Origin: Botryllus schlosseri
Lineage: Eukaryota
Reading direction: 5' to 3'
NCBI GenBank assembly: GCA_051294905.1
Contig: CM119372.1
Span: forward strand, 23,004,001-23,068,000
Length of the DNA stretch: 64,000 bases
Shown here piece by piece: positions 1 to 64,000 of this stretch. The position numbers and the translations under genes were made by a program. The notes beneath the pieces were generated by a model, which saw only the letters and a program-made list of their open reading frames with translations, was not told the origin of the DNA and made no database searches. How positions within the stretch are numbered: the stretch's first letter is position 1; every line of letters begins with the position of its first letter.

Positions 1-397
1 ACCACTGATCTGATAAATTAATTTCTCACAAAATGACTCATTCATACCAGCGCACCTTGCTCGTATCTAGCATTCGTCTGCCGCCCCCTTCTGTCTCAAT
101 CAACTTCGCTGCAACAGTCCTGAGGAACGTAGCCGAAGTATATTCTCCAGATGTACATGCTAGGAAATTTGAATAAAATGGTTTCAAGCCATTCTCTAAT
201 TTTCCTCATATCAGTGAGGTGCCCAGCCACTTTTGTAAGTGCAAGGGTGTCCAGGAGGGGCCCACCCGTGGCCCGTGAGAAGGTCCTGAGTGTCCCCCGC
301 GGTAATTTAAGAATTGACTCCTAGTATGCTTTGAAAAAGCTTCTGGGAGGTACAGAACTTCAATATATAATTGAATGGTATATTCATATTGAAATGA

Positions 398-431
398 ACC
401 CGAATATTTTCGGCCGACACTCGTCAGGGGT
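398..431 (-). ncRNA. Minimal type-I hammerhead ribozyme motif
   Basis: Minus strand ACCC-CTGACGA-GTGTCGGCC-GAA-AATATT-C-GGGT: stem I ACCC/GGGT, intact CUGANGA and GAAA core, 1-bp stem II, palindromic stem III AATATT, UUC cleavage triplet. Confidence 0.7.
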
Positions 432-528
432 AATCGTCAGCAACTAGTAGAGAATCGGAAAGAACATTTTGATACGATTGTTGATATTCAATGCTCTTTC
501 CAATTTTCTAGTAGTTGCTGACGATTAT

Positions 529-562
529 ACCCCTGACGAGTGCCAGTCGAATATATTCGAGT
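529..562 (+). ncRNA. Degenerate hammerhead motif (mirror arm)
   Basis: ACCC-CTGACGA-GTGCCAGTC-GAA-TATATT-C-GAGT; GAAA changed to GAAT and stem I mismatch. Confidence 0.45.
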
Positions 563-1908
563 TCATTTCAATATGAATATACTATTCAATTGAAAATATA
601 TTGAATAGCGACAATCTTTACCGGAGGTCTCAGAACAACTACACAATTTAATAATGTAATAAATAATAATAATGGACCCTTGCAAAGCTAATTCGCGAAA
701 TATTGCATGAATAGTTTTAACCGCGTGGCATGGGGACAGTAAATTTTCGAAGGACACCACTTTCATCCGATCTACCAGTTAATGTGATTACCCGTATGCA
801 ATATATGCTAACACCAATATTATTGACGACTACATTCATTCATTAGCTATATTTTAAACATTTTTGCTAGTAAATAAATGCACACTGATTTTTCATAACA
901 TAAATATTAGTGATTTTGGTGCGTAATATGCCGATTGGTTAAACAGGTAAGTCTTACACATAGGTATATATTATTTCCCTTCATCTCATCAAAGATTTGC
1001 CCCTTTCAATTTCACTTATGGCTGCGCCCTTGAATATTGTCCGTGTCACTGCGTGACCGGAAAATTTGTTTGAGAAAAAAGGACACCACACTTACGCAAA
1101 TTGCCCTGTCCTAATCAAGACCTCATTGCCACCTGGAAACTAAAGCTATGGTAGCTAAACAATAAATGGCCCGCGTAATCATCCGTGCACGGCATGAGGC
1201 CCCTAACCAAAGCGATTGCACGCCGCTGTGCTAGTGAATGCTGACTAGGCCAATCGTTCTCAACCATTTTTAGCTCACGAGCCAGTAAAATTTCAGAAAA
1301 CATATGGCAGACCGGTGTACCTTCGAAAATCGACATCAACCCAAAATGTGCAAGTATACGAAACCGTTTTTTTTAAGCATGGTACTAGAGAGTGGCATTT
1401 CTAGGGGTTTGTTCGTAATTAATTAATTACATATGCTAATTATGGTACTCATGTAATTTCACGGTAGTGTGTCTCCATAATCGAGGTAAAATTGCCTGGC
1501 CTAAATAAACGAGCTACCACCGAGACTCGATTTCAGTCTTCCGCGCCGAAAATAGTATGAATTAACCGACCTACGCTAACTCGAATATTAAATATTCTAG
1601 TCTTTGACAATATCGAGGGAAGAAGAAGCGTTTCGGAGTCGGACCAAACACCTTGTCGTGCTACCTTGTCCATTTGCCACTACCACCAGACTTACTACGA
1701 ATACAATGCTTCGCACGAAAACACCTGTCAACAGTGACACCCGGCAATCCACAAAATAAATAAACCGAAAATGAATGGTCGTACAAACTTGCAGTTTAGC
1801 TAGTCAGCTCGAATTTGTCGCTCGCAAGTTCTCACCTAAGATGGCTTGAACCTTGAACATCAAGTCAAATCGAACATGTTACCATAGGCCTGATGTAGTG
1901 GTTCTCAA

Positions 1909-2927
1909 TAGGGATGGTGTGAACGTGACGTTCACGTTCGCGTTCTGTGTGTGAACCTCCGAAATTTAGAGGTTCACGTTCACAAACAAACCTTGGTAGG
2001 TTCTGCACTGTGAACCTTTTTCATGTAATACAATTTTCATTTCATTATAACATATTTGGTAGAAATTTATATAGCATTTCAACTGCGGGCCACTCTATGC
2101 ATGGCGCTGGCAGCATAAAATACCAACACTAAACGAGCATGCACCTTGACAATCTCAAATATTTTTAATTGTTTTGTTACAAAAGTTTGCTCGTAATATC
2201 CATCTTTCCGTATGTGAATATTTAGTGACTCTCTGCTGTAAGCTTGACCCGTAAATCACACAACATCAAGAGCGAAATACACTACATATAGTAGGTATAG
2301 TCAAGTCAGCGAATTATGCTTATTTAACCAATCAATAAAATTGATATCGTTGTCTGATGTAAAAAATCTAGCAGGCGTAGGTATATGGGGTCAATTTTGA
2401 TTTCAAATATTTATTGTACCATGAAAACCAAATCCGTGCGATTGGAGTGCTGGCTACTGCTGTATAGCTTGTTAATGGAATAATATCGGTAACATGTATA
2501 GAAACCCGTTTTACAGTCTGCTCAATATCAACGTAGCAATACTCAGACGCCGAATACATTGTCCGGTCTGGCCAAGACCGTAAGGCGTAAGCTTATTTCC
2601 TTGCAAGTCCCAGTGGAAATTGTTGGCAAAGCGACGGAAGATATTGATTTTATGGGATTTTCTATATCATTTGATTGCCACAGTTGATACATTTGGCGAC
2701 GTAAAATGTCAATGTACTTTAGCATTATGGCATTATGTAGCCGAGTCGTCGCTAGGTAGGCTACTGTGTACATTACATAGGCTATCTATTCACCGAATTG
2801 TAGGGTTGGAATCAGCAATATGACGTCACTTGACGTCATGAGGCTCACGTTCGCTTTTACACAGAACCTTTCAAAAAGGTTCGCGCTCACACGAACCTGA
2901 ACCTTTCAGAGGTTCACACCACCCCTA
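1909..2927. mobile_element. Non-autonomous TIR element, TAGGGATGGTGTGAAC family, copy 1
   Basis: TIRs tagggatggtgtgaac / gttcacaccaccccta; 5-bp TSD CTCAA; subterminal GTGAAC/GTTCAC repeats; homologous to 31092-32076 and 51873-53338. Confidence 0.85.
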
Positions 2928-3039
2928 CTCAACCAGTGTGCCGATTGGACTATGCTCAGGGGTGTCGCTTGAAAATGTGGTCGACGTATAACAAAAATCA
3001 AGGAATCCAAATTATCACCGTAGCATTGTCGGTGGTTCT

Positions 3040-3762: not shown

Positions 3763-4507
3763 AGCAATTCAGGGTTCTCGAAGAGCTAGGGTGTGCCGCG
3801 AACATTTTTCCCTTTGGTAGGGTGCCGCGAGGTCAAAAAGGTTGAGAACCACTGGCGCAATGTTATCTCATTGCGCTGTAAATTACGTAACTGACGAAGT
3901 TCTAAATCAGTTTGAAATTGAATGCTTTATTTATTTTATCAATGGTCAAGCCTTCAATATCTTGCATACATGCAACATCGTAGTGACATTTTTCTTTGGA
4001 GCGACTAGTTTAGCATGAAGGATCACCTTACGCGTATTTACTGTGAGTCCTTGAACTGACTATCCTTATATTTCGGACCAAACATCGGTATTGAGATGAT
4101 GTATACTTGAAATTAGGTTAGGTTTCCGAGAGAAAGTAAGGTTACTTACGGACATAGTCGTAATTCTTCCCCACACAATCAGCCCCTCCATTAAGAGCTG
4201 GTATTTTCTTTCGTTCTCTCATTTTCCGGAACGCATAAGAGCCAGTGCCATCTCTTACCTTGTCACACAGGCCGTATTGCCCAAACGCCTGCCACGAGCA
4301 ATCTATAATAGCAAATCTACTATGTCAATCCCTTAACTCTACCTGAGGCGTTCTACCTTAAGGTACATAATTTGTAGGCCTACTTTGCTTCATAGTGTAT
4401 TTGTATGACAGTTTTATTAGTTGCTTTAAAAATGTCGGACGAATGGTCATTGGTCATCCATGTCTACTGTCTAGCTTTAGCAGTCTCGCGACACACACTG
4501 TCTAGTG

Positions 4508-8090: not shown

Positions 8091-10230
8091 CAGGGGCGGC
8101 CAACCCGTGAGGCAATACTCGAAATTAGTTAGAACATCAGGTAAAATTGCAAGGCCAACCAAAATTTGATTAGCATGACCACGAAATTTGATGATACTAA
8201 AACATTAGTTCCAACGCATTGGCGTAGCCAGGGGCCAGCCCCATTTATCGCAGATCTTCGCATAGGACCATAAAGTAGAATATTTCGTAGCAGATTTATT
8301 TGACTTGAAATTTTTCTTAGCACTTCTCATGATTTATTGTCGCTCGATTTCTTACATGTAGTATTGGAGACCCCTCCTGAAAATTATAAATACGCGTAAT
8401 TTACAGAATTGAGTTAATAATATTCGCAATTAGGAGATAGCGTGTCGTCCAGCATACGCAGGCCGTGTTATTTTTGGCATTTCAGGAGCCAGATGCTAAA
8501 ACTGCCAAAAATAAGCAATTTTTGGCATATGCCAAAAATAACACGGCCCGCCAAATAGTGTATTTCGTTCATGGTGTTGTGTTAACAGGACCACGTCACA
8601 AGCGAGAAGAGCGTGTGTGAAAGGCAGGTTTATTATTCTGGGTCCAGCCCACCCATTAGGGGTGAAAGCATGGTGTCCTAAATGGTGTGGGCACGGCGAG
8701 ATTGAACGGCTGACTTGCATTTGGTTTGCGTCATACTTTCCATTTGTCCAAAGGCAATTTTACGACCATTTTTGACCGGCTTGCCGAGCGCTAAATTTGA
8801 TAAAACGGGTATCAATGAGATGCTGCCGCTGTACTGAATATTAGAATATAAATTATATTCTGCTCATGGAACTGGAACCCCCAAAATCAGCCACGATTTT
8901 TGCATTGTGATCGAGTTGAACATTGTGACACAACAAACTGTCTGACTCTTTCTGAGCTGCATAGTCTCGTTTTGCCAGAGAGTCTTGTTGCGTCAATGTT
9001 CTTGAACAAGCTAACCTTCCCAGGACTCTTCCATGCGAGTTGGTAATAGAGCCACATGAAGAGACAAAAGTCCTCAGAAAATATCTCGGTAGACTGAAGG
9101 TGATGGGATAGTTGGACTAATAAATAGAATGTGTTGAGACACAACACAGGAAACTCCTGGAAAAGTATCGGGAAGAAAATTCTCTCCGCGATGAGATCGA
9201 TGGCACTGGCGAAGTGATCTCTTTTCATGATGCATGAAAGCCGGTTTGGCCCTCCAAAGATTTTGAAGCTCTGAAAACTTTTTGTGGATGACTGGCAACA
9301 TTCTTTCCCTCAACGGCTACTGTTGAAGCCGATATTTCCCAGATTAGCTGGGCGAGAAATGAATTTGGGAGAAACTTAGTTGGCCGGAGTTTGGAGGCAC
9401 TGTTACAGTGCAAACGATTTAAGTCTATTCAACAGCTGTAACAATCAGCTTTTGAGCGTGTTTGTTAGGCTTTTCTTTCTATTTTTGCTTATTGGCACCG
9501 ATTCCGATGGATACTGCACATTTTGTGGTTTCGTTTGATATTATTAACCTATGAAATCGTTGGGTTTTTTCTTCTTCTTATTGTTTGTTGGCACTGATTA
9601 TACGTGGATGCTGCACATTTTGTGGTTTCTATTGACAAACTGGCCCAAATAAAGCGTTTTTGTGACTAATTCGAGTCTGAAACGATCTATTTAGAGGACG
9701 ATGCCAAAACTGCCAAAAATAAAAATCTTAAAATGCCAAAAATAAGTTATTTTTGGCAGTTTTGGCATATGCCAAAAATAACACGGCCTGAACATACGTC
9801 TTCGCTTGTGCGCTCGCAGCGAGATCGTCAACTATGAAACATTTGCACAAAATGATAGAGGCATGCTCACCGAAACCTTCGATGTTGCTATGTCTAAACT
9901 CCGAATGATCCTGTCCTTGCCAAATGAGCTCAGTGGTATAAAAAGGCGACCCTAATATATGCAAGTGACGTACTTATTGATCGAATTCATTCATTACCTT
10001 TGAAACAATTTAGCGCTTCGCGTGACCAGGACTTCAATGCACACTGCACAGTTGTAGACCGAGTTTTCATGGCGTAATTGTTATCAATTTTAAAGCGTAG
10101 CAACATACGTCTTGTTTTCAACGTTACCTAATTCGGTTCGCTCCTATCGGACGACTGAGAAAGGTCATCAACATTGAAGTGGCCCGCGCAATGGTTCGTA
10201 TAAGTTGGCCGAAAAGGTTGGTCACCCCTG
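8091..10230. mobile_element. hAT-type MITE host with nested insertion
   Basis: TIRs caggggcggccaacc / ggttggtcacccctg; TSD GTATACCG/GTATACCC (7/8). Confidence 0.7.
8459..9790. mobile_element. hAT-type element, CAGGCCGTGTTATTTTTGGCA family, copy 1
   Basis: 21-bp TIRs; TSD AGCATACG/AACATACG; inverted homologue at 27436-28780; partial copy from 37109. Confidence 0.85.
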
Positions 10231-11370
10231 GTATACCCTAATACATGGTGTCCAACAGCACCTTTTCAGGTTCCGCCAAGAAAACACTGGTCTTCCCTTC
10301 CTGTATAGACCAGGGGTTCTCAAACCTTGTTACACTACGTAACCTACCTCTTACGAATTGTTTGCATGTATGGCGTAGCCTACCGCTTAGAAATAATGTT
10401 GTATAAAGTGTGCGAAATTGAAAGACAAATCCCCACAGAGTATACACTTCCAAACATTTTTTCACTGCGATATACATGACCGTGTGTCAGCATTAACTGA
10501 AATTAGAATAAAACTCCAAGAAAGGATAATTCCTTTCTAACAGCAGCTGTAACTCGTTGCCAATTTATTGTACAATATCATCTGCTAAGCTTCGATAAAA
10601 TGAAGAAAATCAGATGCCAATACCTGCAATTTGTTACGTGATGAACAAGAAATGTATTCACAGATTCAGCCTCCCAGTTTTGAAGTGATGGATATCGGCA
10701 CCCATTTGCCGTAGAAGACAACCCGTTCCCGAGGCATCTATCAAAGGTGGTAATTGACTCTTTCAAACATTTATCTCGGATCGCATAAGAACCTTTCCTG
10801 GCATCATTGGTCGGGATCGCTGATGACGGGGATTCTAGACGAAGATGCTCGATACGTAACACAACCATCTTTAATATGTATCATTGAGTTCCTTACTAAT
10901 CGTGCTTGATAGAAGGTATTTCCGAAGACAGTATCTTGCTTTGGGTAACAGCCATGAGCTCGAGTTCAGAAGCGAATGAAGATGTTCTTGCCAGCAAATT
11001 AGGTATTTCTTGGGAGTATTGTTCTTTTCGCTGGAAATGTGAAATGATAATGGGTACATCATTATTGTTAGCGAGTGACCGAGCAGCTCGATTTATGATT
11101 GGTTGGAACCGAACAGTAATGGAAAATGATAAAATAATGAATTTGGTGGTGAGAGAAATCACAAAACGAGAGCGTTAAGCAAAAATGCAATTACTGCAAT
11201 ACAAATTGGCTATAGCCAGAGACGCAACACTAATGAAATACACGGAGAGAATAGAGTCGGTCCTTTTGTTTTGTGATTTCTCTCGTTGTTGTTGTTATAC
11301 CATTCTTACGTCACACTACCTATTTCATCTTTATATTTCGAATTGCAATCTCCGTATTATACTGACGGCC

Positions 11371-11404
11371 ACTACCGACGAGGGTTAGTTGAAAAGCTTA
11401 TAGT
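11371..11404 (+). ncRNA. Degenerate minimal hammerhead motif, second family
   Basis: ACTA-CCGACGA-GGGTTAGTT-GAA-AAGCTT-A-TAGT: stem I ACTA/TAGT, palindromic stem III AAGCTT, one core substitution (U4>C). Confidence 0.45.
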
Positions 11405-13247
11405 GAATTAATTGCGAATATGAATGTGTTGTTCATTGCAAAAGTTAGCACAATAGTGTTCTGGTCCTCGTTTGCAAAGATGCTCGGTATTTTGCAAGCA
11501 ACAGCACGGACGTAAACGAGCTGTTGGTGATTTTCATTCACGTATATCTAAATAGCGACTATCCGGTCACTTATGTGGAACACGAGACTGTTAAGCACGA
11601 ACTTCGATTGCATTATTTCAGGGACGAAGCTTTATGAGATTAGCGACCAGTGTTGATGGTGATGGATATATTATTTGGACATCGATCGTATATGTGTCAA
11701 TATAGCCTCTACATATTTCAATGAAAATCCATACTAATAACTATCCGGGTACCAGTGCACACTGCACAGCGTATACCCAGAGATAGTCAATTACAAGTAG
11801 CCTGCTTATACACAAATAACTCAAAATGTTTTGGTATTGTAGCACTTACTTGAGTGATTTTGATTTGCTTCTATCTACTTGAATAGTGGTTAGGCTAAAC
11901 TACTTAAAATATTGTGATTTTGAAAAGAACAGAGTCATTTTGGGATATGATTGCATCACTGTTATGAGTGAAATGCCCGTATTAAAGTAAATAAATATTG
12001 TTTTCGAAAACGTATTTGTACTGTCATTATTCATTATGCGTCTCAAATACGCATCTTGCAATTTCAAACGTAGTCACCTCCAATTAACTGGTAAAAGTAC
12101 GCGACCCTTCGACCAAGTCTACTTTTTGAAACTGTATACTTACTGGGGTAATTTTAAGACCTTGCATTTTCTACTTTCAATCGAAATAGTTTTCAAAGGT
12201 CTTGAAAATCGCTAACTGATAGTGGTAATTCAGTATAGCGGTATACGGCTTACTTCTACTTGAGTAGCGACACTTCACGGTCTTCTCTGCATATGCCCTT
12301 GTTTCCCCACTCGGAACATGGTGTATGTGGGATATGTATACTCACGGGCAATTCTGAAGGTCCGTTACCTCAAACCACAAAGTGTCTCTAATCACGAAGT
12401 CGATGACGCTTCTCCACGATTTCAATGTTTTATCCGCGTGACGCTGCATGCACTCGGTGAAGAAATCACTCAATGCAGAATTGACGTCAGGAGCAAATTC
12501 CGAGGCAAAGTCAGAGGTTGCCGCATGCTGGCGTCTTCCCTCGGGACATTCATAAAAAACGGATTCATGATTTTTTCCATAGCGACAAGCTAAAAATGAA
12601 AGATTGATATGTTACAATGCCACAATTTTTCGAATCCCGTCTTGTTCCTACAAGTATTTACCGAACCCAACACCTAAAGTTCTAGGCCTAAGTTTCGCGC
12701 CGCACCATACCGCCCTTGTTTATCTGGGCTCCTCCTCGCCATGTGATCCGCTTAAGCGGTGTCTCACAAAAGTCTAGAGCTAGCGCTACAAGTGCATGGG
12801 CTTATATCATGAATCAAGCAATAAATATCCTATGACTAGAGTAGTCGAAACACCATGAATACCCAAAACAACTATAAACGAGTGAAATAAGAGGATTAAA
12901 ACTTATATTCATGAAATTGCCACATTTCTAAATCCACCAAACTACGGTGTACCGAATGATTTCTCCCAGTCAAGGGATGTAAAGAAAATTTAGTTGCAGT
13001 GTACCACGGGTGCATGGCTATCTTTTTTTCTATAACGGCAACATTACGATTACTTTTATGGCGCACGACCGAATGCCAGTGGGAGCATTCAAACTAGCAA
13101 ATGTCAAAACCGAGAATGTCAAAATACCTGGTCGTTCAAAATAACGAGTATCAAAACAGCGGGTTTCAAAATTACGTGCCATTCAAAGTATCCGGTGTCA
13201 CAGAAGCGGTGTCATTATATAGGGTACTATGTAAACTATAACCATAA

Positions 13248-15277: not shown

Positions 15278-17960
15278 CACTGTAAAAAATAAAAACCTCG
15301 ATATACCGCGAAATGTTTGGAAGCACGGTAGCCAGACATTTCGTGGTAATCTAACATTACCGTTAGTCAATGTAAATTTAACTTACACTCGTCCGGTAAT
15401 CTCACTTTACACGCCAGACTGTAATGTTACAGTCACCTCCGGTGTATCTAATCTACATGTTCTCCTGTACATTTGCGATCGAGACTGTCATTTTACCGCC
15501 TACCTACCTACATGCTATCCCTGTAAATCAGGATTACATACCAGCTTGTAAATTCACGTACATCCATACCTATCGCAAAGCAACCCGATGCAAAAATATC
15601 GCAACATTTTCTTCACATACCCAAAACGACATTGGAACAAACTGTATATTCATTCATGATATCACGATGAAGTGGTTATCGATGGAAAAATATTGCTGCT
15701 GGAGGTCTAATTCTTCTTTAGGAGACATGCAGTAACACGAGTGGTCTCAAGAAAACGTGAATTAATTCCACCACCGGCCAAACTTCCAATTGTTTCTTTT
15801 TCTCGTTCTCATTCCTTCTGTGTAAGTAGTATCTTGCAGTTCCACTAAAAAGAATTCATGCGTAAGTCGCTATATAAAGCAAAGTTCCTAACCTGGACAG
15901 TGGACATGACTGTATAAAGACTAAGACAAATAGGCTAACAAAAATATAACATGTTTTGAAGTACCGGTACTGGCACATTGTGTGATGACGGCTTCGCCTT
16001 TTACATGACATAGCAGAGATTCGTGACTTTATCTGTATTGAAGCAAAAGGTTCCTAATTAAGGGAGGCATGTGTGGCAAACAAATCCAGCAGCGGATGAA
16101 AACATATCTATGCTATGGCCCGAAAATGACATTACCAAGCCAACAGTTTCAACTCCTCCGCAGCGGAGTATGAGGTCACTATATAAGTCGACAAATATCC
16201 CAAAATAGAACAGAGAATGCGGCGAATGAAATATATCAATATGAAATCTAAGTCATCGAGGGCTGGTGTGCAGAGTCAGATATTCACGGTAACAAATACT
16301 ATGTAGTACTGTATTACCTTTTAAGATGCGTATTCCATTCAGCATTCCTAGGAATCTTCAACGATCGTGTCCACTTTCTTCAAGCATAACAAGCTTCGCT
16401 CCACCCTTTGCTCAAATCTCACTAATGGCCACTGGCCAGACGACACTCGAACGATTTCGAAATAAATGGTATTTATCCGCTGACACATCACACCAATAAT
16501 ATTTACTGGTCACGTTATGATGTTTGATCTGGGTCGTTTTTTCCATACAGAAACATTTATCATTGCATATAGTCCCTTTTTTCATCTAATTTCGTATAAA
16601 TTGATATATATTCCATGTGTTGTTCACGGGTCCATCTACTTTGTGAATGTCGGCAATGTCGGCGCAATGTCGGCAATGTCGGAGCAATGTTAGCAATGTC
16701 GGCGCAATGTAGGTACAATATACGAACTTATACCGTGCAATATACTTATATTCAAATAATTATAACTGATATTATACTTGACAGATAGCAATGTCGATGA
16801 TGTTGCCGCAATGTCGACAATGCCGGCGCAATGTCGACAACGGCGGCGCAATGTTGATAATGTCAGCGCAATGTCGCCGCAATGTAGGTACAAAATGCGA
16901 ACTTATAACTTACAATATACCTATTTAAAAAAACTTTTTAGTAGATATGACTCATGTTTAATTGGGTGAGTATGCTATGCTTGATATTTTACTTGACCGA
17001 TAGCAATGTCGATGTTGCCGCAATGTCGATAATACCTACATTGCGGCGACATTCTAATTGGCGACATTGCGCCGGCATTGTCGACATTGCGGCAACATCA
17101 TCGACATTGCTATCTGTCAAGTATAATATCAGTTATAATTATTTGAATATAAGTATATTGCACGGTATAAGTTCGTATATTGTACCGACATTGCGCCGAC
17201 ATTGCCGACATTGCGCCGACATTGCCGACATTCACAAAGTAGATGGACCCTGTTGTTCACTACTTACTGTACTTACCTAACCAGACGCTGCTTGTGATGT
17301 CACAGTTGTGCGTTGGTTGTTTACTACGAATCTCAGAAAAAGCAGTCACCTAATGTAACCTATTACAGGTCGCCTTGTCCGCCATTAACAAATGGTCAGC
17401 TGAGCATGCGGTGCTGATATTTTGTAGTTTCCCCGAGCAATATTATGCATCCTGAACTAATTTTCTAACTTATCAGCCTTATCCGTGACAACAAATGTAA
17501 CCAGCGAGACTGGCCGTACAGCCATTGCCTTATAATATAATATGGCTACGGTGTACCACATTAGCTACGATTTTCAGTTATTTCTTGTACCCTACTAAGC
17601 TTAAATTGATACTAGAGGGCCAACAATTTCGGTATGACAGACCCCAGTCTCGCAAACGAGGTTCAATCAGGTCAAATCACCTCTCGAATGATATATCAGG
17701 AACATTCAGTTCTACGTATACATTGGCTGCAGCGATTTTGAAGCTAATCAACTTTGCCAGTAGCCCGGTAAACTGCAGTAACGAGTAACTGTCAGTAATT
17801 TTGCGAAGAAATTCTGGTAACTTACTTTACATCTATATTAAGGTAATATTACATATCAAAATGTAAAATGACAAGCTACGCACAGTAATTGGCTGCGACC
17901 GGTAATTCGTGGTAAAATTTACAGAGATTTCCCAGTAAATCTACCAGATTTTTTACAGTG
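15278..17960. mobile_element. EnSpm/CACTA-like non-autonomous element
   Basis: TIRs cactgtaaaaaat / attttttacagtg; 2-bp TSD TA; many TTAC/GTAA subterminal motifs. Confidence 0.75.
16628..17250. mobile_element. Foldback MULE-like MITE
   Basis: Long TIRs starting gggtccatctactttgtgaatg; 10-bp TSD TGTTGTTCAC; internal CAATGTCGG(CG) tandem repeats. Confidence 0.85.
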
Positions 17961-25654: not shown

Positions 25655-25985
25655 TCAACGGAAGCTCATCTCTGTGAACTGCATATTCAAATCTTTTTTT
25701 GTATCATGGTAATACCAACGAATCCCACGACCATGGCTTATATTGTACAATCCATTGAGGTTTGATCTGTGGCAATCGTTGTACCACCATCCTCCTTTGA
25801 ATTCTATTGCACAGTTAGATTCTGCACGTAGATCGTTGTCTGCGTCTTTTGTGGTAAACTGTTGATCGTTCAAAATACCTTTCCTATTACTGGCAACAGA
25901 TCGTGCAATGGCATCACTTGCGTTCCCCGAATATCCACTCACGTGTAGTCTGTAATTGTCAGAGGCCGGTGCGATGTTGAAGGAA
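25655..25985 (-). pseudogene. Fibrinogen-related-domain (ficolin/tenascin-like) gene, last exon
   Basis: SFNIAPASDNYRLHVSGYSGNASD...FTTKDADND...NCA...GGWWYNDCHRSNLNGLY...MQFTEMSFR*; acceptor ttttcaacag at 25986; AATAAA at 25612-25617. Confidence 0.9.
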
Positions 25986-26490
25986 CTGTTGAAAATTAAT
26001 ATTATTATAGGGCAACCATAGTTTTGCGGAGCAAATTCCGGACACTCTTTAGCGCCCACTAGTAGACTTTAAAATTAGGTATGGTACATTTCTTTCAATA
26101 TGACGTCACACTAGAAAAGTTTTGCCTAGCGACCATAGGTGGTCACGATCCGGATCAGGAGCCGTTATAATGTTAGGTCGGTGCATTAATGTGGTTGTGT
26201 CTCGTAAGGGCAACCCTACATCATTTCAGGCGCTTTTAAGGGATGGGGAATTTCCAGAACAGTCCATGAACCAATGATTTTGCCGTATCAGGATATATGT
26301 AGTTTGTTTAGCTTCTGGTCGTGTACCTGTTGGTTTTGTTTTGGTATTCATGATGTTTCGACATCAATGGTCATTTTACACCAGATCGATATTATCTTAT
26401 TTGATTCCTGGACCGCGGACTTAAAGCACGACCCTATATTTAGCTCTTGACTTTTGCAAAGCACCGCTTACGCTGATCGGATATTCGTAC

Positions 26491-27435: not shown

Positions 27436-28780
27436 CAGGCCGTGTTATTTTTGGCATATGCCAAAACTGCCAAAAATAACTTATTTTTGGCATTTTTCGA
27501 TTTTTATTTTTGGCAGTTTTGGCATCGTCCTCTAAATAGATAGTTTCAGCCTCGAATTAGTCACAAAAACACTTTATTTGGGCTAGTTTATCAAAAGACA
27601 CCACAAAATGTGCAGCATCCACGTATAATCAGTGCCAACAAACAATAAGAAGAAAAACCTAACGATTTCATAGGTTAATAATATCAAACGAAACCACAAA
27701 ATGTGCAGTATCCATCGGACTCGGTGCCAATAAGCAAAAAAAAAGCCTAACAAACACGCTCAACAGCTGATTGTTACAGCTGTTGAATAGACTTAAATCG
27801 TTTGCACTGTAACAGTGCTGCCAAACTCAGGTCAGCTAAGTTTCTCCTAAATTCATATCTCGCACACCGAATCTGAGAAATATCGGCTTCAACAGTAGCC
27901 GTTGAGGGAAAGAATGTTGCCAGTCATCCACAAAAGGTTTTCAGAGCTTCAAAATCTTTGGAGAGCCGAACCGGATTCCATGCATCATGAAAAGAGATCA
28001 CTTCGCCAGTGCCATCGATCTCATCGCGGAAGGAATTTTCTTCCCGATCCTTTTCAGGAGTTTCCTGTGTTGTCTCTCAACACATTCTATTTAGTAGCCC
28101 GACTATCATTTCTCCTTCAGTCTACCGATATATATTCGGAGGACTTTTGTCACTTCAGGTGGCTTTAATATTACCAACTCGCATGGAAGAGTCCGGGGAA
28201 GGTTAGCTTGTTTAAGAACATTGACGCAACAAGACTGTCTGGCAAAACGAGACCATGCAGCTCAGAAATAGCCAGACAGTTAGTTGCGTCACAATGTTCA
28301 ACTCGATCACAATGCAAAAATCGTGGTTGATTTCGGGGGTTCCAGCTTCATGAGCAGAATATAATTTATATTTTAATAATCAGTACTGCGGCAGCTTCTC
28401 ATTGATACCCGTTTTATCAAATTTAGTGCTCGACAAGCCGGTCAAAAATGGTCGTAAAATTGCCTTTGGACAAATGGAAAGTATGACGCAAACCAAATGC
28501 AGTCAGCCGCTCATTCACGCTGTGCCCACACCATTTAGGACACCATGCTTTCACCTCTAATGGGTGGGCTGGACCCAGATTAAGAAACCTGCCTTTCACA
28601 AACGCTCTTCTCGCTTGTAACGCGGTCCTGTTAACACAACACCATGAACGAAATACTCTATTTGGCAGGCCGTGTTATTTTTGGCATATGCCAAAAATTG
28701 CTTATTTTTGGCATTTTCAAATTTTTATTTTTGGCAGTTTTGGCATTTGGCTCCTGAAATGCCAAAAATAACACGGCCTG
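27436..28780. mobile_element. CAGGCCGTGTTATTTTTGGCA-family element, copy 2
   Basis: Perfect TIRs; TSD CACATCAG; reverse-complement homologue of 8459-9790. Confidence 0.9.
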
Positions 28781-28846
28781 CACATCAGTCATAAATGGAT
28801 CTTCCAATATCACATGAAAAGTTATCTTTTAAAAGTGTTATAAAAT

Positions 28847-37054: not shown

Positions 37055-37831
37055 GATCTTGCTCCAGCGCGTTCCTTGGCTGATTATTCAGCGCTGACGG
37101 GAATGACGCATGCCGTGTTATTTTTGGCATATGTCAAAAATACCAAAAATAACTTAAATTTGGCATTTTTCAGATTTTATTTTTGGCAGTTTTGGCATCG
37201 CCTTGGATTCATATTTATAGACTCGAATTAACCATGCAAACTGCTTCAGTTTGGTCTTTCCTATGAAACGGAAGTCAGAACACATGCAGTATCCACACTC
37301 TGCCATCAAACAGCAATATTTGAATCCGAATTGAAAACGATGTTGGAGAAGAAATGTACCCGATACAAGACGAGTGCTTCGGCAATATCTATTCCCAATA
37401 GTCGATTCACTATGCGTACAACATTAACGGCATTCACACAGGTCACAATACTTACGATAGCAAAAGGGTTTCTGATACGTTTGGATAGCAGTCTTCACTA
37501 CCCAACCAATGGTTATGGAAATCACGAGTGGCTTTGATATTCAATATAATATGAAAAAAATATCCAACGGGAAATAAACAAAAAAAAAACAGTAAAGGAC
37601 TGAATGTTTGCAGGCCTATGTATGGTACGCATTGATGGGGGTTACTTCTTGGCCACTGAGGCATTTTGCACTGTATAAGTGTGTATGTTCAATTGTTCAT
37701 TGATGAAACTATATCCCTATTGTCCAATGGGACACAGTCTATAAGTGATTGCACCATATGATGACATTTTCCTTAACATGTTGTAACATGTTTCATTCAG
37801 TGTGCATGCCTCCTCTATACATCGCCTAGGC

Positions 37832-45712: not shown

Positions 45713-47357
45713 CTGGAAATATCGTAGCGAGCTGTAGTTATCAATATGGAATTCGCGATGGTCCTTGCCATAACTTCTTTGGCTATTATACTATATGGTT
45801 TACAAGTAGCTTTTTACCAGTGGCGGCTCGTCCTATAGGGCAACTGGGGCATTGCCCCACCTAAAATTCTGTTCAATAACAATTTAACCATTTATAGACG
45901 CACAGCGCTCAATATATATCGAGATCACAGCGAAACCCGCGTTCTTCTTGTGCTTTCGCTTGCAAATGCCCATACATAGCGAAGTCTCCGCGAAAATCGA
46001 ATTCTCTTCTGTGTTTTCGCTTTGTGAATGCCTAGCCGGGGCTTGCCCCGGTAGCGCTCATAACAAGCTTTCACTATCTATTCTCTCAAAGCTGCGCACA
46101 ATTAAGAAACGTTGCTTTACTCTCTCCTATTCGTAAAATGGCCGACCAACCGGGGCAAATATGCTTGCTGGCCCCTAAGGTGTGATGTAACAATCGTATC
46201 TATATCTGAACTCGGATACCGTGATATGCGTTGAGTCGACCGTTGCTGGTACAGGTCGATTTTGATGGTGTTTCACACCATGATAATTCTTGAAACTTGG
46301 TATGTCATGTCGTGATGGTGGTATTTAACACTGTCCTAAGTTTCAGGGTTTCTACTCAAAGTTTAGGGTAGTAATTCCGTTTCCAAAGTCGAGTGTGTGC
46401 TGATCGGTCATGTATCGCAAACATATTTCACGCAAAGCCGGTATTGGTCTCCATTGATTTTAACGATGCTCCTTAGCTAGATCCGTCATGAACTTTTACA
46501 TGGTATGTCTTGATTTTAGTATCGAACGCTGTGCCAAGTCTCAAGGTTGACACTCAATGATTAGGGCAGCAATTTCGTTATTAAGTTCGAGTATGGTAGA
46601 GATGTGCGCTGATCTGACACTTAGCCTACCTAACGCATTGCGGATTTCACGCAAAAGCCGGTGTATCTGTGTTCCATACTGAGATAGGTGATGAGATGAT
46701 GATATCATGAAACAGTTTACTAACATCCTCGGTTTGCATTCAAATATTTAGTTTTATTTTATATTATCCAATGTCAATTTCACCGTGGAATGGTGGCCTT
46801 CGGGCCATTTGCTCACAATTACAACCCCTGTCAAGCGCGATAGCTGTTTCGTTTTCGATGGCGGCTAACAGCTGATCGCTTGATCAGCCGATTCCTCAGT
46901 AAATATTACGCAAAATTCGGCGTTGATCTGTTCGTATTAATTTTGACAGTGTACCATACCGAAAACGGTCATGAGGCTATACTTCTCGATGATTTCATGT
47001 AACAGTGTACCAAGTTTTCGGCTTTCATCCACGTATTTATTCGGTAATATATTTTCCGAAGGCGATTTTGCAGCAGACATATAGACACTATAGACCGTAA
47101 GCCGTATGTGTCGTGTGACAGTCTCCAGCCTCAAGGCCAGAATCTCCCAAGCTGTACCGGGACCGAATTTCCGAGGCTGCTATCCGTAGTTCTTCAGAAT
47201 GATGTTTTGGATTCAATATGACATTTCCTTGTCCAATCTATGAGATAACAATTGCGTATGTGTCCGAACTCGTTGACCTTTCCAGTTAGGCATACGCAAT
47301 CTCTCGATTTATAGTCATTTCCATTTCTGCAGATAAGTAGTCAGGTCAAGTGCGAAC

Positions 47358-47972
47358 ATGAATCGTGTTGAATCTTTGCTCCGTACGCCGTTTAGCCAGC
47401 TGCCTTTAGAGCAAAAATTAGAGGTAAAGCGACTAGGTCCGTATCAGCCTAGAAATTGCCCATTGATCCAATCGTACGCCGGAGGAAAGCGCACTCGTGC
47501 CTTTTCTTCAGCGCATTTCGATAAAAATGAATGGCTTACTTATGGCGAGGATAAAAACGCCTTGTTTTGCTTTTACTGTCTTTTATTCGACAGTGCCGGT
47601 ACCGGAAGCAGTGGCTCTTGTTGGAACAAAATTGGTTATCGCGATCTGAAGCATTTGTCAGAGCGTCTGAAAACGCACCAAAAATCCCAAGTGCGCATGG
47701 CTAGTGCAGTTAAATATAAATTGTTTGGCAGAGTAAATGTAATGTCGCAGCTCAATGAAAGTTATCGCGTATCAGTCTGCAAGCACAATGAGCTTGTAGA
47801 TAAGAATAGGCATGTTCTCTCTCGGGTGATTGATGCCATTAAATTTATTGGAGTTCATGAATTGCCCCTTCGAGGCCACGATGAGAAGGAATGCTCTCTC
47901 AATAGGGGGGTATTTTTGGATCTAATTAAATACGCGGCTTCCATTGATAGCATTTTACTCGAGGCACACTGA
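47358..47972 (+). pseudogene. Truncated hAT transposase N-terminus (TTF-type zinc finger plus start of DUF4371, ZMYM1-like)
   Basis: WLTY..DKNALFCFYCLLF...W...GYRD...LKTH..S and LPLRGHDE...NRGVFLDL motifs; stops before the catalytic domain. Confidence 0.85.
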
Positions 47973-48114
47973 CAGTTAATTTACCGATATATTTTGTTAT
48001 GGCTATGGAAAAAAAGTGAAAAATTCATCAAGATGAAATAATTTATTCATGAAATTGTTTAATGCGATATGTGCTCGCATTTCAATTTAACACAATGCTT
48101 TGATTCCTGCTTGA

Positions 48115-48516
48115 ATGATGGCAGGCAGACTCGTAATTAATCTTCCATGGATAACAGCTGGCTTTTTATGTTTTACGTTTATGGGTGCCACCGCTTTGAT
48201 TGCCTATCCCCTGGTCGTAACGCATCAGGATCGTGTACCAAACACTTTCGGACGAGGGCAAATCGATTTGACTCGCTTTCGGGACGAGAATCCATATACA
48301 AATCGGGTCGGAGGCGCTGCAGCACTTTACAGAATTGCTGAGCATGGAACGATTAAAACACCACAAGGTGTCATGCGAATGCTCTTTGTAGGTAGTTGGT
48401 CTGTGTATTTTTGGTATAGTCTTACTCGGCGCTTGCGTAATCTCTACCACGAAATCATAACGCATGCTACTAAGGATAACCTGATGATTGATTCGTGGCA
48501 TGGGAACGATTCTTAG
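48115..48516 (+). other. Cargo ORF (133 aa) with two hydrophobic segments inside the hAT element
   Basis: WITAGFLCFTFMGATALIAYPLVV and VMRMLFVGSWSVYFWYSL; not transposase-like; coding status unproven. Confidence 0.35.
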
Positions 48517-48766
48517 TTCGCGTACATTTTGTAAAATAATCATTTGAATAAAAAACAATGAATAAAACATTTGTTACCGCACTTCAAGTCACGCCACCGG
48601 CAAACCTCTCGCGGCACCTACGTTAAAAATCATTGTTTACGGGAAATTCATGTGGCCATCATGAACGTTGAAAAACGCTACTGTGACGTCATATTGATAA
48701 CAAGTCGCTTGCGGCCCTTGCCCCACCACCCGATATTGTCACGAGCCGCCACTGCTTTTTACTTAC

Positions 48767-50098: not shown

Positions 50099-51872
50099 TA
50101 GAAATAGCTTCAAAGAACGATTGAGATCGATATAAGACTAGGTAAAGGATAAGATACGTGGTTATATCTTAAAAGTTTGTTTGAGCGGGGCCATATTTCT
50201 AGATCTAGGATAAATTGAGATGAAACAGTATCTATACATAGTTTACTATACATTTTCTGTCTAGGTTTCCACCTGCAGCGGTCATGCACTACCAACTATA
50301 TTACTGACTAATATATTCGTACTAATATAAAACCGGATATTTTCGGCTGACGCTCGTCAAGGGTGATCGACAGCAACAAGTAGAAAATTGGATTGCTGAC
50401 GATTACTCCTGACGAGTGACAGCCGAACACATTTCAATATGAATATAGTATTCAATTGTATTGAAGTTCTCAACCTCCAAGAGTCGCATTTTTACCACGC
50501 GACTTCTACTTCTATTTGAGTATCAACACCAACAACTTCGACCGCCTCTGTTATATACCAGGCAACGGTGCCTTGTAATGATATCATGAAATGCCAGCGA
50601 AATCAATCCATAGTCCTCCCCGTCTGGAGAAGCCTCAGTCTTTTCGAGTCCGGGATTTCGAGAGACTCATGTCTGCGCAAAATAGATTACCTTTTTATAT
50701 ATTACTCAGAAAAATACAAGAACATCACCAACGAGCCGAAATGCGTCTCATAATGTATCGACAACGGATGCCATGTCGCTGTAATTTTTAAGAAATAAAG
50801 CCTATGGAATTGTAATAAGAAGGAATGGAGCGCTGCCTTTACTCGCAGACAAAGCACCCAGCGGATATCCACATCTCATTGACAATGCTCCGGAAAGTTC
50901 GTGCAGGCGCGGATATGAAACTTCATGATTACCACGATGTAATCCGCTCATTGCGCGATTCCTGCAGGAACGATTGATGCATGGCGCAACCCGTGCATCC
51001 GATTGCATCAGTTCGAATATTTCACGGTTAGTTGATGTTGCAGTTCAGTGTAATCTAACAGACTAATGTTTCTCACTGTAGTTAGGGTTTTCATATTTGA
51101 GACCGCAAAATTACTGACAAAACATTGACGCTACTTATATAGTCTATATCAGACCTGGACAAAGTGCGCCCCGCGGGTCAAATGCGGCCCGCGAAGCCAT
51201 TCTGTGCGGCCCGCGAAAGGTTGCTTAGAATTTATAACATTAAACCGACTTTTTGAATGTTGATGCGTGGACTCAAACGATAGGCTGTATCAACTTAACA
51301 TGAAATTCGTTAACTTTGAAGCCTGTTCATTAATATGCCACGATTACGCTGCCTACGTACCTCGCATGCGTAATCCAGATTCAAAATAAAGGCAATGTGG
51401 CAAAGTATGAGTAACAATTAAATTCACAAAAAAATCACTATTCCCATATTGCTTGAGTCAAGCCTTCTTTGTTGCCATTGTCACATTAAGCATTATACGG
51501 TACCTGTTTCAAATTGTTACGCGAGGCGTTTCCAAATCAATCAATGCTCGCGACTACTATATGACTCATCATATTTATCACCCATAAAGGATGAACGGGC
51601 ATGTCAAAAAGAGAATGCCTAAAGCTGAAATTCAAAGAAGGTTTAAAGCACTAGATATTTGTATACTAGAGTTAGGGGTGACCGCGTCCTTTTAGTTTTT
51701 GCCAACATGTCGCCGAGATTAAGGATTATAATTATGACAAAAACACGAAACACTCGGTCAAGGGAGGCGAATTTCAGAAAAAACTGCAAACTTCGCTCAA
51801 CAACAAGGCTATTTGAGCTGCACACTGCTCGAAATGCAGGAACTAAGACAAACTTTGTACTATCCCATATAC

Positions 51873-53339: not shown

Positions 53340-54195
53340 CTGTTCTCACATCTCTAACTATTTCCTAGATCTCTTCCTCACTTGTGTCAGTTATAAAATA
53401 TGAATCTAAGCTTGACCTGCAGTAAACCACTGGGGATATATCAGGGTAATTGGCACAAGAAGAGGCCAACTTGTCACCTATAGAAACGATATACTCATTG
53501 AGTGATTGTGATATCACTATTCACTAATTTTGGTGCCATCGTCTTTGATGATACTAAGTGGAAAATTTGTATCAGTACGTTTTACATTATTCAACTGTTT
53601 GATCATACGAAAAGTTTGCCTTTGATCTCCATAATGATTGCTGAAGCAATTCATATAATATGACTCCTTTGCTTCTGATTTGATGTGATTCAACTTATTA
53701 GCATATGATTTATATTTTCTTTTATCGCCCTCAGTTCCACTCCGGGACCCTGTTTTATGCAAGAGTTTTCTCTTTTTAATAGAGCGTACGATGCCAGGAG
53801 TAATCCATGGTTTAATTTGCAGCTTTCGCTGCCTTCGTGACAATTTGTGAAGAGGAATGTGCTCATTTATCAAACGCAATATATTGACAATAAAATGATT
53901 AAAGTTCTCATTGAAGTTGTGTCTTGAGAGGGGGTAGAGTTATCATTAGCAAATTTGTCAAATGCATCGTGCAACAGTGAGTTTCGCGATTCAAGTGTTG
54001 GGAATCTTCTATATATACCATGGTGGCAGTAGGTGCAGGCGATTTAACTAGAACCTCAGCAACAAGTGGGTAATGATCAGTGAGGTCATTTTCCATAACA
54101 TAAGGAAATATTGTATATGAATCGAGGTTAGTGTAAATATGATTTATAAGAGTGGCAGAATGGTGGGTCACACGAGTGGGCTGCGTAATAATTAG
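53340..54195 (-). mobile_element. LINE (CR1/L2-group) ORF2 fragment, endonuclease end and linker
   Basis: QPTRVTHHSATLINHIYTN...DLTDHYPL and KPWITPGIVRSIKKRKLLHK; frameshifted. Confidence 0.8.
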
Positions 54196-57500: not shown

Positions 57501-58514
57501 TTTATACGTGGATGCAACTAATTTTAGTCGGTAGCAGTCATCATCTTTATATACCACTCTTCATTTGAAGATTGTGATTAGTGGCTCCGTACCTAATTTA
57601 GTTCCCTACGCTTATCATTCTTTATACATCCGTCCTGCAGACTTAATCGGTTAATGCATTTTGTGACAGCACACTGCTCTTTCGTAAAACGTGAAAATGT
57701 TTGCAAACAACAAACATTGTATTGTTGGTATATTATGTAGAAGAGAATTTTTCACTCCTGTACATGACCTAAATATGTGGCCCTTAAAGCTTGTTTTGGA
57801 ACATTAGAAGAAACAGGATGCCTGCTTTTCCAAAGAATAAAGGGCTTATCATGATAACTTGAAAAAATTTGTCATCAATAATCTACGCCTCTACTTATCA
57901 TGCTAATTCTTCTTCTCCAGTTTTCATATTCTGTTACATTTTAACGGAATCGAGGAAAGCTGTTTGCTTTATTTTTATTTTCGGTTTATTGCCCAGGTAT
58001 AAAGGGCTTCTTTTGCATTGTCTATTATAGACAACCAGATGAATGGAGACTGCTTACTAACAGCTCAACACGAAACCTGAAGTGCGTGTTAATTCACAAT
58101 AGAAATAAATATGCATCGGTTCTAGAACAGTCGATCCGTCTCGACATAGGACGTTTTGTGGCCTACACCACATACCACGTGTTCTATGCTGGAAGAGAGC
58201 CAGAGATGAGCATTGGTTAATTTCTAGTGACGTTTTTATATGGTTTCGAGGCTTTTTCCTAGTGTTTTGCAGGATTTAATGCCAGTTCTAAATACAAACA
58301 GCTTCGAATTTTTGGTTGTTTCTGTTTTCGCCGTAATATTTTACTATGAACTAGAGTTGGTCGAAGGGATCGGCGTTGCTACTCAAGTAGCACAAGTAAC
58401 GCCTTAGACTTCTACTCAATTACAAGTAGAAGTAATAATTTCCCGAGACATCTGAAAACTATTTCAAGTGGAATACGAACTGAAAGGTCTGATGAAGTCA
58501 GTAAATTTCTAAGT

Positions 58515-59380
58515 AAAACTGAACTCATCATTTTTACGCCAATCAGACGCCCCATCGACCACAATCAATTCACCATCAGATTCGGACCAGACACCATTCA
58601 AGCCAAGACCTGTGTACGTAACCTAGGTATTCACTTTGACGGCATGCTCTCAATGGAAAACATATCGACTATACATCAAAGATCTGTTTCATGTATATCC
58701 ACAAGATCAGTCGAATCAGGAACTACCTATCTGAGGATGCATGCAAAGCCATAATACTGTCGCTGGTGATATCGCGGCTTGACTGTGGAAATGCTCTGCT
58801 TTACGGGGTAAACCAAAATTGCATCGACAAGCTACAAAAGATCCAAAACATCGCTGCTCGTTTGGTAACTCGGTCAAGGAAGCGTGATCACGTAACGTCG
58901 ATTCTTAGATCCCTTCATTGGTTACCCGTGAAATTTAGGTCTGAATACAAGCTTCTTCTGTACGTCTTCAAATGCATGGAGGGAAGTGCACCAGCGTATC
59001 TTCGTGAGCTAGTGTCAATGTATAATCCCGGAAGAGCGCTGCGTTCTCAGTCGCAAAAACTCTTGTCAGTTCCAAGAGTCAGAACATCGACCTACGGCGA
59101 GAGAACCTTTTCTTCCTCGGCCGCCATTCTGTGAAACAATCTTCGATTTTCTATCCGACTATGTGACTCGCTATATGTTTTCAAACGCAAAATCAAGACC
59201 GTTTTATTCGCACGAGCGTTCGAGCTACAGTAGTGTTCATTCCCCCCCAACAACTATGCACTCCGTCTTTTATACATATCATTTACTTTTATACTTTATT
59301 GCCTTTTATGTACAGCGCCCAAGTGTAGTAATGATATATTGTTATATTCGGCGCTCTATAAATTATTATAATATTATTAT
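58515..59380 (+). mobile_element. L2-clade LINE 3' end
   Basis: KTELIIF..., SLVISRLDCGNALLYG, LQKIQNIAARLVT, LRSLHWLPV, APAYL; ends in an ATT/TAT-rich tail. Confidence 0.9.
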
Positions 59381-60748
59381 ATTCTTTATTCACAGTAAGA
59401 AACTGGTCAATACACACATAATCCGGGGAGTAACCTGCACCCAAAGGAAAATGGCGAGATTGGAGTAAATTTTTTAAAATTTCAGTAATGCAGTCAAATT
59501 GTTATTCCTATGCAATACATGGAGTCTAAGTCAGATTACAGAATTGCAGTAGATGAAGAATTGGCAAGGGTTACAGAGCAGAGGTAGAGATGATTGAAAA
59601 TGAAGAATCGAAATTACAGAAACGATGCTCTGATTCACTAGTATAATTTTAGTCCAGTGGTGCATTCAACGCCTTCCGAAGAATATGCACAGTGCCCAAT
59701 AACGTGATCTTTTGGATCATGTCGAATCGAACGTTACCCGGAATCTGTCGGATATGTCTCATGAGTTTTTTGCTTACGACCCCTGTAGCGCCAATGACTA
59801 TCGGTACAATGTTTATTTTGCATCGCCACATTTTCTCACATTCCATTTTGAGGTCTGCGTATTTGGACTGCTTTTCTGATTCTTTTTGTTGTATATCGTG
59901 ATCAGCTGGGACAGCCAGTTCAATGAACAAGCATTCTCTTTTCTTTTTTAGTTTGATGATCATATCCGGGCAGTTGCTTCTGATTTCGGGGTCAGTTATA
60001 ACTGGTACATCCCACAGAATTTTTACCTGTTCGTTTTCTGTCACTGGTGCTGGGCTGTAATCGTACCAATTTTTTGTCGAAGTGGTGATGTTAAAATGTT
60101 TGCATAATTCAAGATGAATGTAGTGCCCAATCCTATTGTGTCTCCATGTGTATTCGGTAGCTGCAAGTGCACCACAGCCGGACATGTGATGTGCCACAGT
60201 TTGATTTTGGTTGTGGCACATTCTGCATTTGCCGTCTGTGTTTTGCTTCAGAATTCTTTTGCGATAGTATTTTGTAGGGATAACATAACATAACATGGTT
60301 GGGTTATATTTTTATCTGAACAAGTCACACACAATGTACAATGCGATAAGACACAATGCGATGTCATGAACAGATAGGAGGATGTAGAACCACACGCATC
60401 AGTAGCGATCCTTTACTCTAACATCCACCTCGGCCTAGAGTGCCCGATGTCACATTTCTTTTTTTTTCGATGCTGAGCGATTGGTCTTGTGCTGCGAAAA
60501 TGAACCCTTCGCTTGTCGGTTTCAGACCAGAGCTGGATAGCCAGGTCCATGAAAGCTCGTCTACATGGGGCTTTGAAGTTAACTTCTTGTGCTGTACATG
60601 AAGAGGCATTGACTCCCATATCGTTTCTCTCATTTTGAGCGTTGCATTTTTGTATCGAACTCGTGCTGCTTTTGCTATTGTTGTGGGTTTGGCAACAGTG
60701 TTTTCAGCAGTGTACAGGTTAGCTGTTTCCATGTTGACTTCTCTGACG
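59374..60748 (-). mobile_element. R4/Dong-like RLE non-LTR retrotransposon, 5'-truncated copy A
   Basis: LKPTSEGFIFAAQDQSL, CRMC...H..SGC zinc knuckle, RHN, PD..IELAVP, EKQSKY restriction-like endonuclease; 3' UTR ending AATAAAGAATATAATAA. Confidence 0.9.
60281..60474 (-). mobile_element. SINE 3' fragment inserted in the R4/Dong ORF
   Basis: (ATGTT)n tail; removal restores QDQSLPTKYY in frame; similar to 3045-3150. Confidence 0.7.
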
Positions 60749-63700: not shown

Positions 63701-64000
63701 GGGGCAAGCCCCGGCTGGGCATTCACAAAGCGAAAACACAGAAGAGAATTCGATTTTCGCGGAGACTTCGCTATGTATGGGCATTTGCAAGCGAAAGCAC
63801 AAGAAGAACGCGGGTTTCGCTGTGATCTCGATATATATTGAGCGCTGTGCGTCTATAAATGGTTAAATTGTTATTGAACAGAATTTTAGGTGGGGCAATG
63901 CCCCAGTTGCCCTATAGGACGAGCCGCCACTGGAAATTATGCTTTGATTCACAAATGTAATTTTAGTCCAGTGGTGAATTCAAGGCCTTCCGAAGAATGT
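60749..64000 (-). mobile_element. R4/Dong-like copy B (3' UTR and ORF end), split by hAT copy 2
   Basis: 60749-60990 aligns with 59374-59622; 63941-64000 aligns with 59627-59686. Confidence 0.85.
60996..63932 (-). mobile_element. Young non-autonomous hAT element (2,937 bp), copy 2
   Basis: Same TIRs; perfect TSD GAAATTAT; mirror ORFs at 61778-62392 and 61234-61635. Confidence 0.95.

Follow-up and report, generated by a model that had tools for sequence, protein, structure and literature searches.

Head-to-Head Ends of a Likely Penelope-like Element in Botryllus schlosseri Carry a Hammerhead Motif with a Predicted Pseudoknot

Results

An Inverted Repeat with a Complete Hammerhead Motif

We analyzed a 64,000-nucleotide stretch of Botryllus schlosseri DNA (hereafter the window; contig CM119372.1, positions 23,004,001 to 23,068,000), near the start of which lies an inverted repeat whose left arm carries, on the minus strand at 431-398, a complete type I hammerhead motif (table 1). 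Every core letter is present, CUGANGA, GAAA, and NUH being found in order, and the stems are in place; position numbers follow standard usage for hammerheads. The two arms are complementary at 91% of positions between 369-432 and 528-591 and at 89% between 431-468 and 490-527 (100 of 110 aligned letters overall). The original prediction had placed the repeat at 343..603; its two inverted arms are indeed there, although the limits are corrected to about 330-338 through 592-605. It had also read a mutated copy of the motif on the plus strand of the opposite arm, and this is what the right arm holds: GAAU replaces GAAA (A15.1 lost) and one stem I pair is mismatched, the damage sitting at 552 and 560, where the family majority letters restore both GAAA and stem I. 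In the family majority the core letters are likewise retained (run X5, at most 4 of the 31 differences being unlisted).

A descriptor search at the level of the window recovered the motif. A loose hammerhead descriptor gave two matches in the 64-kb window (the left-arm motif and a poor one at 3891), against an expectation of 0.05 per simulated window of that size; when the pseudoknot described below was required too, two matches were obtained (427, minus strand; 11375, plus strand), with none in 12 simulated windows. An Rfam scan of the whole window returned no family above its threshold, and the Rfam hammerhead models yielded nothing in window 1-3000 up to E = 10. A mir-786 match (E = 2e-5, far below the cut-off) was due to hairpin shape only and was rejected. 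A curated Rfam match is a convenience and not the definition of a hammerhead.

Elsewhere, the window consists of repeat-rich animal DNA, in which a fibrinogen C-terminal domain exon (25655-26068, minus strand; PF00147, E = 3e-24) and decayed transposon pieces occur. An inverted duplicate of 2.94 kb (45814-48754 and 60996-63936, 99.9% identical) appears to be a young hAT-like element, with a weak DUF4371 match and a second frame of 133 aa that has no Pfam match. Another element, of 1.35 kb and with repeated terminal motifs, occurs as two copies in inverted orientation (8458-9790 and 27436-28781, 91%) and as shorter pieces at 28665-28785 and 37108-37230, and a fold-back palindrome of about 620 bp with internal repeats lies at 16628-17250. 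Decayed non-LTR retrotransposon fragments were recognized by eye at 59649-60873 (minus), 58350-59134 (plus), and 53517-53939 (minus), one of them with a cysteine motif and a restriction-enzyme-like end (Pfam match weak, probably spurious).

Table 1. Features of the hammerhead-bearing repeat and of its relatives in the window
Feature	Position	Strand	Remarks
Left arm, 5'-truncated 3' end of the repeat, with one-sided tail	330..468	-	Outer end 330-338; loose ends
Right arm, inverted 5'-truncated copy without tail	470..592	+	5' end 21 nt longer; may reach 605
One-sided tail, about 30-39 nt	330..368	-	Inner limit 359-368; alignments, end clusters
ATG frame, 18 codons (18-19) to element end	334..387	-	Candidate ORF start of parent element
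Strand complementary to loop II (419-413), 7/7 pairs	435..441	-	Predicted pseudoknot
Stem I, 5' strand ACCC	431-428	-	Motif reading
Catalytic core CUGACGA	427-421	-	Motif reading
Stem II, 1 bp (G10.1 and C11.1)	420 and 412	-	Motif reading
Loop II, 7 nt	419-413	-	Motif reading
GAA	411-409	-	Motif reading
Stem III palindrome AAUAUU, 6 nt	408-403	-	Motif reading
C17, predicted cut 3' of C402	402	-	Motif reading
Stem I, 3' strand GGGU	401-398	-	Motif reading
Candidate 7-bp target duplication	331..337 with 590-596	+	Not significant alone
Divergent relative, same layout, compensatory changes	11361..11404	+	Sequence-only model
ATG frame behind the relative, homologous to 387-334	11420..11509	+	DNA alignment
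Second locus, left arm without tail	50306..50392	-	Damage to core and cut site
Second locus, right arm with tail	50393..50482	+	Stem III and 3' strand of stem I lost to a 10-nt deletion

A Predicted Pseudoknot and a Divergent Relative

The loop that closes the single pair of stem II is complementary to a strand, not noted in the original prediction, that lies 3 nt upstream of stem I and whose letters repeat the start of the catalytic core. All seven pairs are possible in the left arm and six of seven in four other copies (chance about 0.012), and the family majority at 415 (96% in X1) converts the lone mid-pseudoknot U-G to U-A; among the four close arms no compensatory changes occur. We interpret the pairing of loop II with 441-435 as a predicted pseudoknot that would brace the 1-bp stem II. 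In predicted folds loop II can alternatively pair with the core, and this capacity to engage either the core or its upstream copy may constitute a switch, or a mere by-product. Non-circular permutation of the kind treated in PMC10085705 was considered for the upstream strand and ruled out, as no GAAA follows it.

The structure had been fixed before a sequence-only model revealed a divergent relative in the window (E = 4e-5 in 231 kb). The relative displays the same layout, with a 7-nt strand, a 3-nt linker, a 4-bp stem I, the core, a G, a 7-nt loop, GAAA, and a 6-nt palindrome. Compared with the left arm, 27 of 44 letters are identical and 12 of the 30 paired positions differ; 14 of the 15 pairs are nonetheless kept, with double-sided changes at four of them, which comprise two pairs of stem I, one of the palindrome (AAGCUU in place of AAUAUU), and one of the seven in the pseudoknot. 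Random placement of the 12 changes equals this outcome at P = 0.001-0.004 (permutation), all double changes stemming from this one sequence; a column-shuffle control on five sequences, counting three of these pairs, was not significant (62 of 500 shuffles reach three double changes). Core position 4 and position 11.1 have decayed in the relative, which retains 9 of 10 core letters, and a model search for a sixth copy found none within E 0.01. Conservation is seen for the core, which is intact in the majority sequence of the family, and covariation against 11361-11404 for stem I and the palindrome (permutation P ≤ 0.004).

Downstream of the motif an ATG frame reaches the end of the element. In the left arm the ATG, at 387, lies 15 nt 3' of the predicted cut, and in the relative this distance is 20 nt; the two frames align with gaps of 9, 6, and 3 nt (the last near the end and uncertain). 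Among the minor variants listed within the frame, those at 373 and 378 are synonymous in the majority sequence, a weak sign, and that at 339, near the end, is not. Another copy of the frame is contained in P0006, an ENA protein call that represents a further member of the family and departs from it at the same outer end. The stretch 11361-11509 (plus strand) can be described as a divergent second family that shares the pseudoknotted layout and the homologous ATG frame. Around the relative at 11361 neither Pfam nor PDB matches were found, and no RT or GIY-YIG; a by-eye likeness of 11422-11570 to the Penelope RT thumb was unconfirmed and was dropped.

Head-to-Head Junctions of a Longer Unit

Contigs and reads of four runs (X1, X5, X7, and the RNA run X23) were aligned to window 200-800 at a likeness of at least 80%. 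The element drew 58,996 contigs in X1, 27,165 in X5, and 5,469 in X7, the flanks almost none, and the summed depth in X1 is ~10^6 on the arm against tens on the single-copy flanks, a figure that is not a copy number. In all four runs loose ends appear before 338 and behind 468, and the repeat family extends on both sides: past 468 its sequence is that of 470-489 reverse-complemented, and ahead of 470 it reaches 30 nt or more. Since the loose ends show the family continuing beyond both arms, the locus consists of two fragments of a single longer unit, both truncated at the 5' side and meeting at 469, and the 21-nt "spacer" (470-489) of the original prediction belongs, by the same evidence, to the 5' part of the right arm. 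The family sequence before 470 includes the palindrome TGACGTCA, which we take to be a CRE-like site, possibly part of a pseudo-LTR (pLTR) promoter that is cut off here.

The inverted repeat is accordingly not a fixed unit, as its junctions also differ among copies: seven of the 15 joints listed (442 further exist) connect opposite strands, each at a different place. No empty insertion site occurs among the 15 joints listed, and contigs of X5 and X7 attach both flanks to the element. At the outer ends, loose-end clusters fall at 338 versus 369/379 (clipped ends, the true ends lying a few letters farther out), in keeping with a one-sided tail. The second locus of the close family is head-to-head as well, with a different junction and without a spacer; thus, at each of the two close-family loci of the window a 5'-truncated copy is fused through its 5' end to an inverted one, and at both the tail is present on one of the two arms, the left arm of the first and the right arm of the second. 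As for the candidate target duplication, a feature that is optional among Penelope-like elements, an equal or better match was obtained in 47 of 300 random range pairs (16% background), and none was found at 50306-50482.

These ends bear on the possibility that the locus is a MITE or a fold-back DNA element with many small hairpins, resembling a hammerhead by chance. The element is short, palindromic, non-coding, and high-copy, it contains several perfect small hairpins, and it lacks an Rfam hammerhead match. Its ends, however, are asymmetric and its center variable, stem I and the palindrome covary in keeping with a hammerhead, and the full descriptor gave no match in the 12 simulated windows, so we regard this account as largely refuted and extremely improbable. 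What the arrangement does resemble is the published class of Penelope-like insertions, which consist of inverted, truncated, one-tailed copies (Craig et al. 2021), and the inverted Penelope ends invoked in the original prediction are to this extent borne out.

Searches for the Parent ORF

None of the 193 window frames of at least 68 aa gave a match to a PLE-type RT or GIY-YIG, nor was either found by motif. Protein searches with the short ATG frame likewise retrieved no RT or GIY-YIG, only P0006 and one unrelated repetitive protein (atlas matches <0.8). The linked ORF for which the original prediction proposed to look was therefore not encountered in the window frames, around the relative, or in the protein searches. 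Family pattern scans gave no hits in metagenome contigs, viral contigs, or prokaryote genomes. A looser pattern retrieved 37 metagenome loci, which we attribute to chance: stem I and the pseudoknot never occur together in them, BLAST aligns none of them to the element, and their weak model matches derive from the search pattern itself.

The absence of a Penelope ORF nearby, as originally noted, stands, and it would be expected from 5' truncation. A short non-autonomous retroelement derived from a pLTR, retrozyme- or SINE-like and moved in trans by a Penelope protein, would also account for the lack of any linked ORF and for the steep fall of X1 depth 5' of about 455 (2.2 million at 431-451, 0.62 million at 452-472). 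There are precedents, as non-LTR retrozymes are described as pLTR derivatives (bioRxiv 10.64898/2026.07.22.740005) and pLTRs alone can mobilize sequence in trans, according to Arkhipova et al. (2013; PMC3846280). Against this, autonomous PLEs as a rule lose 5' sequence steeply, as reported (Craig et al. 2021; PMC8969392), the junctions vary and the family extends at least 30 nt past the longer arm, and the gaps between the ATG frame and 11420-11509 preserve the reading frame. Non-LTR retrozymes, moreover, are defined in the bioRxiv account as units repeated in tandem, head to tail, every one bearing a complete and active type I motif; the loci of the window share with them the short, non-coding, pLTR-related character and the type I hammerhead, and differ in being head-to-head truncation products. 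The small non-autonomous family of the original prediction is hence less well supported than truncation of a longer unit, and we consider non-autonomy distinctly unlikely.

Predicted Folding and RNA Reads

When folds are predicted without pseudoknots, a structure other than the hammerhead has the lowest energy (pair probability of stem I 0.02), and the fold energy does not depart from that of shuffled sequences (z = 0.2). As a monomer the RNA is predicted to favor two inactive hairpins (-9.8 kcal/mol), one of loop II with the core and one of the GAAA box with the 3' strand of stem I, and in the dimer prediction an off-register 14-nt dimer (-11.2 kcal/mol) beats the stem III dimer (-0.2 kcal/mol). 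Taken as a duplex, the pseudoknot helix (-8.9 kcal/mol) is stronger than the core/loop helix (-6.1 kcal/mol). RNA reading through the whole locus would form a fold-back at -152 kcal/mol. Being of opposite orientation, the arms cannot be mutual dimer partners in one transcript; furthermore, a read-through transcript would contain the antisense arm first and would fold into a single long hairpin, so that the mirror arm would bury the motif and the copy at this locus is likely silent as a ribozyme and inert.

In the RNA run X23, 3,489 of 12,895,792 records aligned to window 200-800, both directions alike; 99% of them continue into unlike sequence and 22 reach at least 99% identity. These records represent read-through of many copies and are therefore uninformative on this locus, and no sharp molecule starts or ends were seen in this run, whose library type is weak for cleavage ends. 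Among the listed differences in window 200-800, six are A>G in X23 versus two or three in the DNA runs; editing of fold-back RNA is a possibility, individuals differing between the RNA and DNA runs.

The predominance of inactive folds in these predictions and the lack of sharp ends in X23 raise the question of function, namely whether a hammerhead-derived fold has been retained chiefly to bind protein or to signal initiation next to the start codon, with self-cleavage slow or dispensable. The anole Poseidon element offers a parallel, as its hammerhead is reported to cleave solely in the presence of protein, elements mutated in it remain able to insert, and RNA-seq shows no ends at its cut site (Frangieh et al. 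2024; PMC11167929). Yet ordinary RNA-seq reveals cleavage ends poorly, the majority sequence of the family preserves the core letters, as the decayed relative largely does, and one natural ribozyme in which a pseudoknot accompanies a 1-bp stem II cleaves quickly, at more than 1.2 per min (PMC3088659). We therefore view a signal without need of cleavage as possible, if doubtful.

Discussion

Our results point to a model in which the inverted repeat consists of the head-to-head, 5'-truncated ends of a very abundant repeat, likely the pLTR of a protein-coding Penelope-like retrotransposon, the 1-bp stem II of the left hammerhead being predicted to be braced by a 7-bp pseudoknot; we hold this reading to be probable. 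The hammerhead identity and the link to Penelope are favored by the covariation against the divergent relative, by the one-sided tail, by the variable head-to-head junctions, and by the ATG frame that reaches the end of the element. With published head-to-head insertions the locus shares the inverted truncated copy joined at the 5' end, the tail of 30-40 bp on one side, and about 20 first ORF codons, and it departs from them in that both copies are cut to about 130 nt, without an ORF body. Arkhipova et al. (2013; PMC3846280) described a 31-bp tail, with pLTR and tail together encoding the first 22 aa of the ORF, against 18-19 codons here, and Frangieh et al. (2024; PMC11167929) attributed the tail to initiation by the RT at two sites within the beginning of the ORF. 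By analogy, the RT of the parent element would have started at two sites about 30-39 nt apart within the start of its ORF, and two short cDNAs would have been made and joined at their truncated ends. The resulting insertion would have been dead on arrival and has presumably drifted since, its arms being 91% alike.

The hammerhead itself is partly conventional. Pairs of hammerheads on opposite strands, 100-700 bp apart, have already been reported (Cervera and De la Pena 2014; PMC4209133), and the left-arm motif is similar to the pLTR hammerheads of the Drosophila virilis and Oikopleura type described there: it is type I, with a short stem I, an intact core, and G10.1-C11.1. As in the Penelope motifs of that study, its helix III is palindromic, implying a dimer, the flanks are AU-rich, and most copies are truncated. 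In other respects it departs from the common Penelope form: helix II has one base pair here and at least three in all 56 motifs that Cervera and De la Pena list, and the left-arm motif, unlike those, has no extra base after A9 and has a predicted pseudoknot in loop II. The uniformity of the 56 is partly due to their descriptor, which demands a stem II of at least 3 bp together with a gaaannuh box of 8-9 nt; for the same reasons it would miss the left-arm motif.

Pseudoknots were detected in about 40% of hammerheads by Perreault et al. (2011; PMC3088659), whose figure 4 presents one natural hammerhead with a 1-bp stem II, a fast type II ribozyme dependent on a 6-bp pseudoknot. That metagenomic hammerhead and the present motif both seem to offset a 1-bp stem II by pairing between the regions of stem I and stem II. 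They differ in that the former is type II, of normal fold, and proven fast, and the latter a sequence-predicted type I motif in an animal repeat, whose palindromic stem III requires a partner. Our literature search, which covered sources other than Lunse et al. (2017; dimeric Penelope hammerheads), where the form may occur, found no Penelope element with a 1-bp stem II and a pseudoknot. Overall, the insertion arrangement is already known, and the hammerhead shape appears to be an unusual structural variant with modest comparative support.

How such a motif might operate in the parent RNA can be outlined. Pairing of loop II with the segment immediately upstream of stem I would create a pseudoknot that keeps stems I and II in contact. 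Stem III would arise between two parent RNAs, joined through their 6-nt palindromes, and cleavage would occur 3' of C402, at a distance of 15 nt from the downstream ATG, the protein of the element probably assisting. A further step is to suppose a Penelope-like clade missed by the published descriptor, in which loop II switches between the core (off) and the upstream core-like strand, where the pseudoknot forms (on); this we put forward as a tentative and rather unlikely extension of the model.

As an insertion, the locus is ordinary debris of a known class, and its possible interest lies in the shape of the ribozyme. Penelope motifs are reviewed as acting as slow dimers, those assayed so far being slow or protein-dependent. 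A pseudoknot is what made another hammerhead with a 1-bp stem II fast (PMC3088659), and the present 44-nt case is cheaply testable. The dependence of the published descriptor on a longer stem II suggests that published counts miss whole families. If the switch should prove real, the dimer could be fast and regulated, unlike the sluggish Penelope motifs assayed to date, and would provide a handle on the role of hammerheads in the Penelope cycle.
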